Below, in pieces: positions 6,182 through 14,377 of a DNA stretch of 64,000 nucleotides (position 1 is the first letter of the stretch; each line of letters opens with the position of its first letter). This DNA comes from Escherichia coli (GTDB lineage Bacteria > Pseudomonadota > Gammaproteobacteria > Enterobacterales > Enterobacteriaceae): NCBI RefSeq assembly GCF_024223415.1, contig NZ_CP100500.1; one strand, given 5' to 3'. The translations under genes were made by a program, and so were the position numbers. Below the pieces are notes generated by a model. That model was given only the letters and a program-made list of their open reading frames with translations. It did not search any database and was not told the origin of the DNA.

Positions 6182-9100
6182 ATGAGCGGAAAACCAGCGG
6201 CGCGTCAGGGAGATATGACTCAGTATGGCGGTCCCATTGTCCAGGGTTCGGCAGGTGTAAGAATTGGCGCGCCCACCGGCGTGGCGTGCTCGGTGTGTCC
6301 GGGCGGGATGACCTCGGGCAACCCGGTAAATCCGCTGCTGGGGGCGAAGGTGCTGCCCGGCGAGACGGACCTTGCGCTGCCCGGCCCGCTGCCGTTCATT
6401 CTCTCCCGCACCTACAGCAGCTACCGGACGAAGACGCCTGCGCCGGTGGGGATTTTTGGCCCCGGCTGGAAAGCGCCTTCTGATATCCGCTTACAGCTAC
6501 ATGATGACGGACTGATACTCAACGACAACGGCGGGCGGAGCATTCACTTTGAGCCGCTGCTGCCGGGGGAGGCGGTGTACAGCCGCAGCGAGTCAATGTG
6601 GCTGGTGCGCGGTGGTAAGGCAGCGCAGCCGGACGGCCACACGCTGGCGCGGCTGTGGGGGGCGCTGCCGCCGGATATCCGGTTAAGCCCGCATCTTTAC
6701 CTGGCGACCAACAGCGCACAGGGGCCGTGGTGGATACTGGGGTGGTCAGAGCGGGTGCCGGGTGCTGAGGACGTACTGCCAGCGCCGCTGCCGCCGTACC
6801 GGGTGCTTACCGGGCTGGCAGACCGTTTCGGGCGGACGCTGACGTACCGGCGTGAGGCCGCAGGCGACCTGGCCGGGGAAATCACCGGCGTGACGGACGG
6901 TGCCGGGCGTGAGTTCCGTCTGGTACTGACCACACAGGCACAGCGGGCGGAAGAGGCCCGCACCTCTTCGCTATCTTCTTCTGACAGTTCCCGCCCTCTC
7001 TCAGCCTCAGCGTTCCCCGACACACTGCCCGGTACCGAATACGGCCCCGACAGGGGTATCCGTCTTTCAGCGGTGTGGCTGATGCACGACCCGGCATACC
7101 CGGAGAATCTGCCCGGTGCGCCACTGGCGCGGTACACGTATACGGAAGCCGGTGAACTGCTGGCGGTATATGACCGCAGCAATACGCAGGTGCGCGCTTT
7201 CACGTATGACGCGCAGCACCCGGGCCGGATGGTGGCGCACCGTTACGCGGGAAGGCCGGAGATGCGCTACCGCTACGACGATACCGGGCGGGTGGTGGAG
7301 CAGCTGAACCCGGCAGGCCTGAGTTACCGCTACCAGTATGAGCAGGACCGCATCACCGTCACGGATAGCCTGAACCGGCGTGAGGTGCTGCATACAGAAG
7401 GCGGGGCCGGGCTGAAGCGGGTGGTGAAAAAAGAACTGGCGGACGGCAGCGTCACGCACAGCGGGTATGACGCGGCAGGAAGGCTCACGGCGCAGACGGA
7501 CGCGGCGGGACGGCGGACAGAGTACGGTCTGAATGTGGTGTCCGGCGATATCACGGACATCACCACACCGGACGGGCGGGAGACGAAATTTTACTATAAC
7601 GACGGGAACCAGCTGACGGCGGTGGTGTCCCCGGACGGGCTGGAGAGCCGCCGGGCATATGATGAACCGGGCAGGCTGGTATCGGAGACATCGCGCAGCG
7701 GGGAGACAGTACGCTACCGCTACGATGATGCGTACAGTGAGTTACCGGCGACGACAACAGATGCGACGGGCAGCACCCGGCAGATGACCTGGAGCCGCTA
7801 CGGTCAGTTGCTGGCGTTCACCGACTGCTCGGGCTACCAGACCCGCTATGAATACGACCGCTTCGGCCAGATGACGGCGGTCCACCGCGAGGAAGGCATC
7901 AGCCTTTACCGCCGCTATGACAACCGTGGCCGGTTAATCTCGGTGAAAGACGCACAGGGCCATGAAACGCGGTATGAGTACAACGCCGCAGGCGACCTGA
8001 CTGCCGTCATTACCCCGGACGGCAACCGGAGCGAGACACAGTACGATGCGTGGGGAAAGGCGGTCAGCACCACGCAGGGCGGGCTGACGCGCAGTATGGA
8101 GTACGATGCTGCCGGACGTGTCATCAGCCTGACCAACGAGAACGGCAGCCGGAGTGAGTTTACCTACGATGCGCTGGACCGCCTGGTACAGCAGGGCGGC
8201 TTTGACGGGCGGACGCAGCGTTACCGTTATGACCTGACCGGAAAACTCACGCAGAGTGAAGATGAGGGGCTTGTCATCCTCTGGTACTACGATGAATCGG
8301 ACCGTATCACTCACCGCACGGTGAACGGCGAACCGGCAGAGCAGTGGCAGTATGATGGCCACGGCTGGCTGAGAGAAATCAGCCACCTGAGCGAAGGCCA
8401 CCGTGTTGCCGTCCACTATGGCTATGACGATAAAGGCCGCCTGACCGGCGAACGCCAGACGGTGGAGAACCCGGAGACGGGGGAACTGCTGTGGCAGCAT
8501 GAGACGAAACACGCATACAACGAGCAGGGGCTGGCAAACCGCGTCACGCCGGACAGCCTGCCGCCGGTGGAGTGGCTGACGTATGGCAGCGGTTACCTGG
8601 CGGGAATGAAGCTGGGCGGGACGCCGCTGGTCGAGTATACGCGGGACAGGCTGCACCGGGAGACGGTGCGCAGCTTCGGCAATAATGCATATGAACTGAC
8701 CAGCACTTACACCCCCGCAGGCCAGTTACAGAGCCAGCACCTGAACAGCCTGGTGTATGACCGTGACTACGGGTGGAATGACAACGGCGACCTGGTGCGC
8801 ATCAGCGGTCCGCGACAGACGCGGGAATACGGCTACAGCGCCACGGGCAGGCTGGAGAGTGTGCGCACCCTCGCACCGGACCTGGACATCCGCATCCCGT
8901 ATGCCACGGACCCGGCGGGCAACCGGCTGCCGGACCCGGAGCTGCACCCGGACAGTACACTCACAGTGTGGCCGGATAACCGAATCACCGAAGACGCGCA
9001 CTACCTGTACCGTTACGATGAATACGGCAGGCTGACGGAGAAGACGGACCGCATCCCGACGGGTGTGATACGGACGGACGACGAGCGGACCCACCACTAC

Positions 9101-10387
9101 CACTACGACAGCCAGCACCGCCTGGTGTTCTACACGCGGATACAGCATGAGGAGCCACTGGTCGAGAGCCGCTACCTCTACGACCCGCTGGGACGGCGAA
9201 TGGCAAAACGGGTCTGGCGGCGGGAGCGTGACCTGACGGGGTGGATGTCGCTGTCGCGTAAACCGGAGGAGACATGGTACGGGTGGGACGGCGACAGGCT
9301 GACGACGGTGCAGACTGACACCACACGTATCCAGACGGTCTACCAGCCGGGGAGCTTCACGCCGCTCATCCGTATCGAGACAGAGAACGGCGAACGGGAG
9401 AAAATGCAGCGCCGCAGCCTGGCGGAGAAGCTGCAGCAGGAAGGAAGTGAGGACGGTCACGGTGTGGTGTTCCCGGCTGAGCTGGTGAGGATGCTGGACA
9501 GGCTGGAGGAAGAAATCCGGGCAAACTGCGTGAGCAGTGAAAGCCGCCAGTGGCTTGCGCAGTGCGGGCTGACGGTGGAGCGGCTGGCGGCACAGATAGA
9601 GCCGGTTTATTTGCCTGAGCGAAAAATACATCTTTATCACTGTGACCACCGGGGCCTGCCGCTGGCGCTTATCAGTGAAGACGGCAATACGGCGTGGCGC
9701 GGGGAGTATGATGAATGGGGCAACCAGCTTAATGAAGAGAACCCGTATTACCTGCACCAGCCATACCGTCTGCCGGGGCAGCAGCATGATGAGGAATCAG
9801 GGCTGTACTATAACCGGAACCGGTACTATGACCCGCTACAGGGGAGGTATATTACACAAGACCCCATTGGGCTGGAGGGGGGATGGAACCTGTACCAATA
9901 TCCGCTGAATCCAGTGCAACACGTTGATCCATTAGGGCTTAGTACTATGATAATAGGTAACGGCCCCGTTCCTGATAATCCTTTTGGGCATGCTGCGGCG
10001 GCAAATCGATATGGATTAATGAGTTCGGGAACTGGGGATGAGATGGGAGCCTCTGTCTCTGATTATTTTAAAAAGATGCAACCCCGCAGAGATACCTGGA
10101 TTTGGATAATAGATACAACAGATGAAGAAGAACAATGTATGATGAATAAGGCAATAGACCTTAATAAAAAACTAAAAACTATTAACCTCGGGCCTCTTCC
10201 TGTTTTAAATAATTGTTTTAGCCGAACGAACATGATTTTTGAGGCGTGCGGGTTTAACAACCCCTCTATGAATACAAATGCGCCTATAAGCCTACAAGTG
10301 CTCGGTGAGCTTTATGGATATCAAAGATATATTATGCCTAAAGGTCCTTTCACTGGATTCCCATTTGAATTTCAAGAGGTAAAGTAA
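6182..10387 (+). CDS. rhsE: Full-length Rhs polymorphic toxin, 1401 aa: PAAR-like N-terminus, YD-repeat shell, DPLGL boundary motif, variable C-terminal domain
   Basis: N-terminus [23 protein letters not shown]...; many YD repeats ([17 protein letters not shown], ...); conserved core end ...[26 protein letters not shown]...VDPLGL at 9923-9940; symbol assigned by locus position (between yncH and H-rpt/pptA). Confidence 0.9.
9941..10387 (+). other. Rhs C-terminal variable (toxin) domain, 148 aa, family not recognised
   Basis: Begins immediately after DPLGL; abrupt drop in GC content relative to the rhs core; contains His and Cys residues (GHAAA, EEQCMM, NNCFS, EACGF) but no motif I can assign. 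Confidence 0.6.
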
Positions 10388-10786
10388 ATGGAAATGCTTG
10401 GGAAGATATTAGTGATAATTATTTCCATGATAATTATATCTTGTGATTATTATAATGCTGGCATGGACTATCAAGATAATATAGCCCTCGAGCAAGTCGT
10501 AACATGGGATTCTGATAATATATTCACACCTAATATCTTTGAACATAATGGAAGATGTTTTATGAAGAAAAATGAAACATGGATGTTATTAAATGGAGAT
10601 GCAACACCAAACATTAGAACAATGAGCAATAAGAAAATAGAATGCCTGGAGAAGAGTGAAGTAGAATGGGCTAGTAGGGTTTGCGACAGTATCACAGACA
10701 AGGAAAGGGAAAATCTGAAGGCATTAATATGTAGCAAACCAGCTAAATCAGTTAATACAGGCAAAAGACCAGCGTTAGGATATTGA
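10388..10786 (+). CDS. Putative Rhs immunity protein, 132 aa, predicted inner-membrane lipoprotein
   Basis: ATG directly follows the rhs TAA stop (10385-10387); N-terminus MEMLGKILVIIISMIIIS-C19-D20 = signal peptide plus lipobox-like IISC with Asp at +2; AT-rich like the toxin tip. Confidence 0.6.
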   Translation: MEMLGKILVIIISMIIISCDYYNAGMDYQDNIALEQVVTWDSDNIFTPNIFEHNGRCFMKKNETWMLLNGDATPNIRTMSNKKIECLEKSEVEWASRVCDSITDKERENLKALICSKPAKSVNTGKRPALGY

Positions 10787-10937
10787 AACCGGCACTGCAC
10801 TCTATCACTATTACAATATTCTGAGTGACTAGAGCAACTGCTCCGCCATCCGGGCTAGCAGTATGACGACGAATCCGAACTGCACTACAACTGGCACCGG
10901 TACTACAATCCGGGACAGGGACCAGGGAAAGATCACG
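10787..10937 (+). pseudogene. Vestigial orphan rhs core 3' fragment with in-frame stops
   Basis: Translation ...LRHPG*QYDDESELHYNWHRYYNPGQG aligns with the core end ...[27 protein letters not shown] of the upstream rhs (similarity also visible at DNA level); TGA and TAG stops in frame; homology ends at the intron boundary. Confidence 0.5.
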
Positions 10938-11424
10938 GTGTGCCGTAGGCACAAAGATGCAAAACGGGACGTTTTGCATGTAATAAGCATAAGCTTGTGA
11001 AGAGATGGTGGCAGGCCCACCGGGATCTGCTGTCGGAAGTCGGTCCCAAACAACCCCGGCTGCTGTGGTAAAGAGCCAAGGTAGTGAGCGCAGGGGGAAC
11101 GATCAGACGAGATCTGATCCTGTGTGAGATACAGTGAGATGAGTAAACCCGAACCTGTGTTGAAACGTCGTTAGTCCTAAGTGACATCAAAACCGGAGGT
11201 TTCGTGATACCGCCTGGATTAATTTACGGGTGAATTCCGAATGCTGCGTAAATGGTGTCCGGCGTATAGCAGGCATGACGCTGTATCAGGCTCTTTGCAG
11301 GAACTACGGGAACCAGTCGTCGCAATGTCAAGAGAGAAATACAAATAACCGAAATTATGAGTATGAGAGTATCGATGTGCGAAACCGGGGCAGAGCTGTT
11401 CGTAGTAGTGAGGAAGCGTTTGTA

Positions 11425-12725
11425 ATGAATGTGGAGCGAAGGGGCAACGTCGGGCAGTCTGCATCACAGCCCAACTGTAAACAGGAGGAGGCTGCGGGTG
11501 AACAGACAAAACCGTTTCAGGTCAGTAAATTGCATGTGGTGGAAGCGTACCGTCGGGTAAAGGCGAATGCCGGAGCTGCCGGAGTGGATAACCAGACGCT
11601 GAAAGATTTTGAGCGGGATCTGAAAGGAAATCTGTACAAAATCTGGAACAGGTTATCGTCGGGAAGCTGGATGCCGCCGCCAGTGCGTGCGGTGGAAATT
11701 CCGAAGAAGGATGGCAGTAAAAGGCTTTTAGGAATACCGACAGTAAGCGATCGAATAGCGCAGATGACGGTGCTGGTAACGTTTGAACCATTAGTGGAGC
11801 GTTATTTCCTGAATGATTCATACGGATACCGGCATGGAAAATCAGCGCTGGATGCAATAGCAGTTACCAGAAAACGTTGCTGGCAATACGACTGGTGTCT
11901 TGAGTTTGATATTAAAGGGTTATTCGATAATATCCCCCACGATTTATTACTCAGGGCAGTGGATAAACATTGCGCGGATAAATGGGTAAGACTGTATATT
12001 CGCAGGTGGCTGACAGCGCCGGTGCAGATGCCGGATGGAACACTGAAGGAAAGAAATAAAGGTACGCCACAGGGTGGAGTCATCAGTCCGGTACTGGCGA
12101 ATTTATTTCTGCACTATGTGTTTGATAAATGGCTGTCGTTACATTATCCGGAAATTCCCTGGTGTCGTTATGCAGATGATGGATTAATTCATTGTGGCAG
12201 TAAACAACAGGCAGAGGAATTACTGAATAAACTGGCAAAACGTTTTCAGGAATGTGGACTGGAATTACATCCGGAGAAAACGAAAATAGTTTACTGCAAA
12301 GACAGCTAACGACAGGCGAACCACGAAACAGTGCAGTTTGATTTTCTGGGTTATACGTTCAGGGCGAGAAGAGCACGTAATCAGCGAAGTGGAAATCTCT
12401 TTACGAGTTTCAGTCCGGCGGTGAGTAACAGTGCGCAGAAAGGCATGATCGAAAAACTCAGGAAACTGCGGCTCAGACGCAGGGTGGAGATGAGTCTCGA
12501 AGATATTGCGAAAAGGCTGAATCCGATGATATCGGGGTGGCTGAATTATTACGCGAAATACCACAAAGATATATTAATCTGACGCTGATTGCGTGGGCGA
12601 GAAAGAAATATAAAACCCTGCGGTATAGAAAGACGAAGGCGTGTCAGCTAATGGAAAGGCTGTCAAAAGAGAAGCCGGAGTTGTTTGCCCACTGGAATGC
12701 AGGACCGGAAAGCGCGTTTGCCTGA
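11425..12725 (+). pseudogene. Group II intron reverse transcriptase/maturase (IEP), disrupted by an in-frame TAA and a frameshift
   Basis: RT motifs (AGAAGVDNQTL..., GTPQGGVISPVLANLFL, RYADDGLI = YADD box) and X/maturase motifs (FDFLGYTF, ISGWLNYY); TAA at 12307-12309 interrupts the frame; C-terminal segment (12537..12725) is in a different frame; start could alternatively be the upstream ATG at 11230. Confidence 0.75.
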
Positions 12726-12728
12726 CGG

Positions 12729-12762
12729 GAGCCGTATGAAGCGAGAGTTTCACGTACGGTTC
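12729..12762 (+). ncRNA. Group II intron domain V (catalytic hairpin)
   Basis: gagccgtatgaagcgagagtttcacgtacggttc: 10-bp lower stem with AGC triad at positions 2-4, 2-nt bulge on the 3' strand, 4-bp upper stem, GNRA (GAGA) tetraloop; 4 nt after the IEP stop. Confidence 0.7.
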
Positions 12763-12945
12763 TGCGAGAGGCTGTCGGGGAGGTTCCGGTGGCCTACTCA
12801 CTTAACGCTGCTTTTTTGTACTAAATAATTCGCATTTTATGTTTAAAAATTGAGATATTCCCCATTACCTAAAGCTGTTTTTTATTGCTTATACATGATC
12901 AAATACTCCTTACATAATTAAGGAGAACAAAATGGAATTAAAAAA

Positions 12946-14067
12946 TTGATGGAACATATTTCTGTTATCCCCGATTACAGACAAGCCTGGAAAGTGGAAC
13001 ATAAATTATCGGATATTCTACTGTTGACTATTTGTGCCGTTATTTCTGGTGCAGAAGGTTGGGAAGATATAGAGGATTTTGGGGAAACACATCTCGATTT
13101 TTTGAAGCAATATGGTGATTTTGAAAATGGTATTCCTGTTCACGATACCATTGCCAGAGTTGTATCCTGTATCAGTCCTGCAAAATTTCACGAGTGCTTT
13201 ATTAACTGGATGCGTGACTGCCATTCTTCAGATGATAAAGACGTCATTGCAATTGATGGAATAACGCTCCGGCACTCTTATGATAAGAGTCGTCGCAGGG
13301 GAGCGATTCATGTCATTAGTGCGTTCTCAACAATGCACAGTCTGGTCCTCGGACAGATCAGGACGGATGAGAAATCTAATGAGATTACAGCTATTCCTGA
13401 ACTTCTTAACATGATGGATATTAAAGGAAAAATCATCACAACTGATGCGATGGGTTGCCAGAAAGATATTGCAGAAAAGATACAAAAACAGGGAGGGGAT
13501 TATTTATTCGCTGTAAAGGGAAATCAGGGGCGACTAAATAAAGCCTTTGAGGAAAAATTCCCGCTGAAAGAATTAAATAATCCAGAGCATGACAGTTACG
13601 CAATCAGTGAAAAGAGTCACGGCAGAGAAGAAATCCGTCTTCATATTGTTTACGATGTCCCTGATGAACTTATTGATTTCACGTTTGAATGGAAAGGGCT
13701 GAAGAAATTATGCGTGGCAGTCTCCTTTCGGTCCATAATAGCAGAACAAAAGAAAGAGCCAAAAATGACGGTCAGATATTATATCAGTTCTGCTGATTTA
13801 ACCGCAGAGAAGTTCGCCACAGCAATCCGAAACCACTGGCACGTGGAGAATAAGCTGCACTGGCGTCTGGACGTGGTAATGAATGAAGACGACTGCAAAA
13901 TAAGAAGAGGAAATGCAGCAGAATTATTTTCAGGGATACGGCACATTGCTATTAATATTTTGACGAATGATAAGGTATTCAAGGCAGGGTTAAGACGTAA
14001 GATGCGAAAAGCAGCCATGGACAGAAACTATCTGGCGTCAGTCCTTGCGGGGAGCGGGCTTTCGTAA
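12946..14067 (+). CDS. ydcC: H-repeat-associated protein (ISAs1-family transposase), Rhs-linked
   Basis: ORF 12946..14067 (373 aa as called from a TTG; next codon is ATG) with DDE-type transposase sequence; an upstream ATG at 12932 with AGGAG RBS (12921-12925) is out of frame because of a 6-A run at 12940-12945. Confidence 0.85.
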
Positions 14068-14377
14068 TCTTGCCCTGGTTCGTTGAGTTTTTCTGCATTG
14101 CCGGTAATTTTTGCATCTTCTTTGTCCGTGGCTTGTTTCAGCGTCTATAATGGGCGTTAATAAATTGGCAAGTCGGGAACTTGATGTTTTCTTAATGGTA
14201 TGTAGGCAGAAGAATATGTTCTGCAAGTTGACGATTTGTTGGTGCTTTATTTAAAAGGGTGTAGTGCAAATATCTACAATTTCAAGTAGGCATTATTGTC
14301 GTAAAAACGCATCACCGGACATACGACATTCACAATGTGTGTTAATTTTACTGACATCTTTCAAAAGGAGCACAATC

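Follow-up and report, generated by a model that had tools for sequence, protein, structure and literature searches.

In the Escherichia coli genome analyzed here, a copy of the group II intron E.c.I9 has lost its protein gene to two unrelated mutations in one E. coli lineage; it would now be immobile, and its inactivation would be recent. We put the probability of this reading at about 0.88. The copy lies in a stretch of 64,000 nucleotides from contig NZ_CP100500.1, which is called the window below and in which all positions are counted. The intron and its ribozyme parts are as follows:

10938..12802, plus strand: group II intron, E.c.I9-like, ORF class D (from the empty site, the shared 3' limit, and Rfam)
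11007..11122, plus strand: domain I-IV ribozyme motif (Rfam RF01999, group-II-D1D4-2, 93.9 bits, E=4.6e-19)
12727..12802, plus strand: ribozyme domains V and VI, with the bulged A in CCT-A-CTC (Rfam RF00029, 62.8 bits, E=3.5e-11)

The element is a bacterial group II intron of 1865 nt (GTGTGCC...CCTACTCACT). The unoccupied site of E. coli N3, GATCACG/TAACGCTGC (the slash marks the point of insertion), leaves a single possible placement of the borders, 10938-12802. All compared intron copies are alike through ...CTCACT, and the exons beyond differ. E. coli K-12 was also considered as an empty site and rejected: its ydcC H-rpt element is a different variant across 12 nt at the target and did not fix the borders. 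The intron begins with GUGUG, compared with the conserved GUGYG, and by the empty-site comparison it ends in ...CACU, the usual end being A-pyrimidine.

The reference for identification is the copy in strain ATCC 8739, from which the window intron differs by 54 substitutions in 1865 nt (2.9% diverged; 97.1% of aligned positions are identical); BLAST identity, in which gaps count, is 95.5-96%, and 95.5% for the protein gene. The ATCC 8739 copy has been named E.c.I9 and described as a full-length intron of ORF class D "in a Rhs region" (Leclercq and Cordaux, 2012, PMC3522654); the class is given in Table S2, the target is a Rhs-associated insertion sequence (IS), and the naming rule reserves the name E.c.I9 for introns with >90% nucleotide similarity to the reference intron (PMC3522654). 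At 97.1% identity to the ATCC 8739 copy, the window intron lies above this limit. These alignments identify it as E.c.I9 of E. coli, present here at full length, with class D taken from PMC3522654. The domains matched in an intact homolog are RVT_1 and GIIM only, with no HNH or other endonuclease match.

The ribozyme part of the window intron looks undamaged. Both matches exceed the Rfam thresholds (36 bits for RF01999 and 40 bits for RF00029), and the pair of scores, 93.9/62.8 bits, stands beside 93.1/62.8 and 92.0/61.9 in copies with an intact ORF. Catalytic domain V is found at the 3' end of the intron, with the AGC triad and the bulged A visible in the sequence. Within the compared set, the segment 12727-12802 is identical in the WL297, FDAARGOS_536, RMDEC465, R32_14_1F, and OkiPb01695 copies, while the ATCC 8739/13E0780 and 200164 copies have one or two differing positions each. 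Lineage-specific substitutions in the ribozyme number three (11079, 11215, and 11315).

The intron resides in an insertion sequence next to a Rhs locus:

6182..10786, plus strand: Rhs core/toxin gene (1401 aa) and an adjoining 132-aa ORF (from the ORFs; annotated as "RHS element core protein" and then hypothetical protein)
10923..14077, plus strand: ISAs1-family (H-rpt) insertion sequence hosting the intron, about 1290 bp without it
10932..10937, plus strand: putative IBS1, ATCACG, the final 6 nt of the 5' exon (can pair with the proposed EBS1; by inspection and covariation)
11202..11207, plus strand: proposed EBS1, CGTGAT, in domain I (perfect 6-bp complement of ATCACG; by inspection)
12949..14067, plus strand: ISAs1 transposase gene ydcC, 372 aa (from the annotation of an identical locus and the ORF list)

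The left end of the IS, CAGGGAAAGATCA (10923-10935), has an imperfect inverted copy, TAATCTTGCCCTG, at 14065-14077, and similarity to the K-12 ydcC H-rpt element begins at this same left end. The intron sits 15 nt inside it, upstream of the transposase start and on the same strand. The gene order is VgrG, Rhs core/toxin (6182-10387), the 132-aa ORF (10388-10786), the intron, and ydcC (12949-14067), followed by pptA, yddH, nhoA, and genes of the narZ operon. This is the rhsE-pptA locus, with the intron-bearing IS downstream of a Rhs toxin-putative immunity pair; the 132-aa ORF would be immunity-like by its position only. A scan for promoters and terminators around the intron gave only chance-level matches.

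Two further features of the locus were noted. Just upstream of the IS, at 10860-10937, one frame reads ...DDESELHYNWHRYYNPGQG, similar to the conserved end of the Rhs core in the 1401-aa protein; the IS has probably inserted into, and cut, an orphan fragment of a Rhs core. Downstream of the intron, at 12933-12951, ydcC lacks a base in its third codon that the K-12 gene and the N3 copy have (ATGGAA-TTAAAAAATTGA), so that the original start now meets a stop, and the annotated start is an internal ATG at 12949 (372 instead of 378 aa).

The position of insertion is identical in ISAs1 copies at several chromosomal loci. The pair CGTGAT/ATCACG is a candidate EBS1-IBS1 interaction, and the predicted pairing covaries with the type of target across intron lineages: the ATCC 8739 lineage has GATGAT at the EBS1 position, the complement of ATCATC of the K-12-type H-rpt. 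The ATCC 8739 copy itself combines a K-12-type EBS1 and a K-12-type 3' exon with a 5' exon of the window type, a mixture that suggests recombination between intron copies. The G>T substitution at 11215 falls in a stem beside the proposed EBS1 loop and, in a helix drawn by hand, would break a C-G pair.

The gene for the intron-encoded protein (IEP), which lies in domain IV of the intron, is disrupted twice. Uninterrupted alleles exist at the same site in strains WL297, ATCC 8739, and 13E0780 and served as the reference for aligning the lesions; they encode 440 aa, not the approximately 430 aa given for an intact ORF in a preliminary description based on the letters of the window. Relative to these alleles, the window copy is composed of the following parts:

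11425..12309, plus strand: first piece of the IEP gene, 294 codons and a premature TAA (RVT_1, E=3.5e-40; reverse transcriptase (RT) motifs through YADD at residues 249-252)
12307..12309, plus strand: first lesion, TAA in place of GAA (Glu295), by G>T at 12307
12310..12582, plus strand: same-frame continuation, codons 296-381, then four out-of-frame codons and TGA (end of the RT and first half of maturase/X)
12566..12567, plus strand: second lesion, the junction of a 22-bp deletion (from alignments; the coordinate was confirmed by rebuilding the intact protein)
12567..12725, plus strand: C-terminal tail, Arg389-Ala440 and the stop, in a shifted frame (codon-for-codon match with the C-terminus of the 440-aa intact protein)

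The preliminary description had the RT frame running through YADD to the in-frame TAA at 12307-12309 and going on in the same frame into the X-domain, and both statements hold. The ORF ended by this TAA is 11230..12309, and its true start, by the annotated intact genes, is the ATG at 11425. On the cut-off piece, the model TIGR04416 (group II intron RT/maturase) reaches 354 bits over model positions 3-256 of 353, against 425.6 bits for an intact homolog; the homology of the pieces to group II intron proteins thus greatly exceeds chance. Beyond the TAA, the ORF 12331..12582 (MQFDFLGYTF...ISGWLNYYAKYHKDILI, then a stop) keeps the frame, and GIIM (PF08388) matches the continuation piece at its residues 44-83 with E=1.9e-10. 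Alignment to intact IEPs identified the original sense codon as GAA (Glu295) and the indel as a 22-bp deletion. G is present at the position equivalent to 12307 in every aligned copy outside the group of genomes that share the lesions (nine copies and the W246* allele described below). The first lesion interrupts the gene close to the point where the RT domain ends, so that the entire maturase/thumb domain is missing from the 294-aa product, as is the C-terminal tail.

The second lesion had been described as a switch of frame at about 12540-12580, in the maturase domain. Its location is borne out, and the switch proves to be the deletion between 12566 and 12567, not a small indel. The lost bases, GTCAGCGATGAAGAAAGTATGC, comprise the third base of codon 381 and the seven residues Ser382-Cys388, and their removal shifts the frame midway through the GIIM domain, which spans residues 339-410 in the intact protein, and leaves the tail in ORF 12537..12725 (...LIAWARKKYKTLRYRK...ELFAHWNAGPESAFA, then a stop). 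Microhomology at the junction is at most 1 nt by eye, and thus a repeat-mediated mechanism of deletion is not indicated. The lesions are 260 bp apart; one is a nonsense substitution and the other a deletion, mechanistically unrelated, which agrees with the earlier view of two independent events. With both of them, an uninterrupted RT/maturase frame is absent from the window copy. Judged against the intact orthologs at the same locus, the IEP gene is a pseudogene. It is a pseudogene of an ordinary kind, with lesions already flagged in public annotation: RefSeq/NCBI PGAP labels the gene a pseudogene, "frameshifted; internal stop".

Of the 5426 complete E. coli genomes, 109 contain the intron family, 83 of them in nearly full-length form. 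Allele-specific 61-nt queries recovered the TAA allele in exactly 21 of the 5426 genomes and the deletion junction in precisely the same 21 records. Each of these carriers has a single copy of the intron and no intact protein gene of the E.c.I9 family; RefSeq gives the gene its pseudogene label in these records, and their sources are humans, poultry, cattle, pigs, and mink. In public assemblies, the 294-aa product is encoded on at least 291 contigs, and both lesions are present in all ten further places that were read among them. A single-lesion intermediate was found neither among the 5426 complete genomes, nor in two metagenome scans, which gave no match to the TAA or junction patterns, nor in a collection of 15 billion proteins, from which the exact "repaired" 440-aa and "deletion-only" 385-aa proteins are absent. 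A 138-aa product was considered as a TAA-only allele and rejected, being derived from a mosaic third allele with a stop of its own, W246*, and neither window lesion.

When the adjacent 24 kb of core genes was compared with the 5426 genomes, 19 of the 20 best matches were lesion carriers, with identities of 98.9-100%; the top non-carrier, at 98.8%, comes 14th, interleaved with the lowest-scoring carriers. This prevalence of carriers among the closest neighborhoods argues that the lesion allele belongs to one related strain group; the allele would either predate the common ancestor of the group or have moved among strains by recombination. The two lesions are a convenient lineage marker for this group.

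Variation around the intron was also observed among the carriers themselves. In the 24 kb of core DNA at 26000-50000, divergence reaches 1.1% between carriers whose dead introns are identical, and a 6.7-kb insertion is present in some of them; the divergence reflects either recombination of this region within the lineage or transfer of the Rhs-intron locus. In two carriers from other assemblies, IS66-family or IS3-family transposase genes replace the Rhs gene and the 132-aa ORF, and thus the region upstream of the intron is apparently undergoing rearrangement by other insertion sequences.

Apart from the two lesions, the window copy shows little decay. Over 2111 bases of the element, one carrier is 0-3 bases away from another (99.9-100% identity), and the window copy has no stops or indels beyond the two described. 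The nearest non-carrier, OkiPb01695, is 21 substitutions away and has neither lesion and a +1 A frameshift of its own. When nine other copies are taken for comparison, 14 substitutions are private to the window lineage, three in the ribozyme and 11 in the ORF. The latter are eight synonymous changes, two missense changes (S8N and R322S), and one nonsense change; eight synonymous changes were observed against 3.15 expected when the same types of mutation are placed at random (P=0.002). As a separate observation, G>T and C>A transversions account for six of the 14 lineage-specific substitutions, the nonsense one included, which is unusual for a set this small.

Further evidence on timing comes from the W246* allele (TGG>TAG, equivalent to window positions 12160-12162), which is found at the same Rhs-type site on about 21 short Logan/ENA contigs. 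It has the 3' haplotype of the window, including four private changes, but retains GAA and the 22 bp. This allele is mosaic: its 3' third resembles the window haplotype, and its 5' part resembles other clades. Together, the synonymous excess and the lesion-free 3' haplotype suggest that, almost up to the time of the lesions and thus for most of the lineage's separate history, purifying selection acted on the gene or recombination with functional copies kept renewing it. Some of the synonymous excess could come from recombination with functional copies and not from time under selection, as the family is visibly mosaic.

The chief competing explanation is that the intron is an ancient relic, inactivated long ago and decaying neutrally since. 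An old event would accommodate the two independent lesions and the presence of the allele in 21 genomes from several hosts, with neighboring core DNA up to 1.1% different, but it fits poorly with eight synonymous against two missense private changes in the ORF, with the lack of further stops or indels, with unchanged ribozyme scores, with 99.9-100% identity of the carriers over the element, and with the existence of the same 3' haplotype having neither lesion. Therefore, we consider an ancient relic unlikely. The copy had earlier been called old, and this is appropriate insofar as the lesions seem to predate the common ancestor of the carriers; almost no other decay has accumulated, and carriers are only 0-3 bases apart, which does not suit the term. 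Most probably, inactivation preceded this common ancestor and yet was recent relative to the divergence of the intron itself.

Group II introns depend on their protein in two ways, for maturase activity in splicing in vivo and for reverse transcription in retrohoming, and group II RTs need the thumb/X domain. In the scenario that we prefer, recent destruction of the protein gene, an E.c.I9 copy would have entered an ISAs1/H-rpt element of the rhsE-pptA locus by retrohoming, at the site that it normally targets, 15 nt in from the left end of the element. Later, the G>T change at 12307 turned Glu295 into a stop, cutting off the maturase domain and the C-terminal tail, and the deletion at 12566/12567 removed seven maturase residues and shifted the frame. 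Without its own protein, the intron would neither splice efficiently in vivo nor retrohome; it would persist as a single immobile copy by vertical inheritance and, if transcribed, would be expected to remain unspliced. Since the 294-aa product is devoid of the thumb/X domain and carriers have no complementing family gene, the copy is expected to be immobile. The term "immobilised" used in the preliminary description is reasonable, with one copy per carrier and no intact family protein gene; the loss of mobility itself is what we infer from these features.

Two explanations assign a benefit or a function to the broken gene. That loss of the protein gene was favored and swept the lineage, or that an expressed 294-aa RT-only remnant has a host function, seems very improbable; if true, favored loss would illustrate the selection-driven extinction model in nature. 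Slightly less credible still is that the gene works as it stands, either because read-through combined with frameshifting restores the protein or because the RT-only product has acquired a new role. The product does retain all RT motifs, including YADD, and it is 100% conserved among carriers, but recoding cannot restore the seven lost conserved maturase residues, neither feature is present in intact relatives, recency is sufficient to explain the conservation, and the established requirement of group II RTs for the thumb/X domain argues against activity of the remnant. Programmed recoding and a domesticated RT were dropped as unsupported.

An error of sequencing or assembly in this one window, which the preliminary description had also argued against, is hardly conceivable: nothing specific speaks for it beyond the general frequency of artefactual pseudogene-like frameshifts, a substitution and a 22-bp deletion are unlike homopolymer-type errors, and the same two lesions recur in independent assemblies. 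They are perfectly linked in 21 complete genomes, which many laboratories produced, and in the ten further places read, which rules an error out.

Among known introns, the closest parallel is E.c.I9 of ATCC 8739. It shares with the window intron the ribozyme and protein family, the target (the left end of an ISAs1/Rhs-associated IS), and the rhsE-pptA neighborhood. It differs in having an intact 440-aa gene, whereas the window copy has the Glu295 stop and the 22-bp deletion, and in having GATGAT as EBS1 (CGTGAT in the window) and another variant of the 3' exon. The best-studied class D intron is RmInt1 from Sinorhizobium meliloti. We take it to resemble the family of the window intron by description, as an endonuclease-less RT/maturase with a C-terminal tail that homes into an IS; it is presumably only a distant relative. 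E.c.I2 of E. coli UMN026 is likewise of class D and has a Rhs-associated IS as its target, in which it inserts at a different position (PMC3522654). Near-identity searches with the window intron did not recover E.c.I2.

Copies of E.c.I4 and E.c.I6 with disrupted ORFs and fragments of E.c.I9 have been described in Enterobacteriales (PMC3522654). The window copy resembles the inactivated copies of that study in that it has not proliferated and persists in its lineage as a lone copy whose protein gene is mutated; under the selection-driven extinction model, such persistence is an escape by inactivation (PMC3522654). In contrast to the E.c.I9 remnants reported there, which are fragments of 159-193 bp, the window copy is full length with only two lesions, and its allele is not listed in that study.

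Decay of the protein gene is recurrent in the E.c.I9 family, with independent lesions in several copies. Thus, the R32_14_1F copy has its own stop, W364*; the RMDEC465 copy has a stop of its own, E423*, and its 5' end is cut by IS21; the strain 200164 copy has its own frameshift; and copies of the AH04/CX08 group have an insertion of IS1. At the same time, intact copies occur in ISAs1 elements at several other loci, with up to four per genome, which suggests that the family is still active elsewhere. This agrees with the published picture, in which intron populations are patchy and short-lived, and non-proliferated copies are inactivated and persist (PMC3522654).

In summary, the finding has little import beyond annotation hygiene and does not change intron biology. 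Its value is that the locus provides a clean, datable case of the death of a group II intron, by a stop and a deletion with the ribozyme still intact, and that the pattern in the family agrees with the published idea that inactivation, not saturation of their targets, is how these introns disappear.
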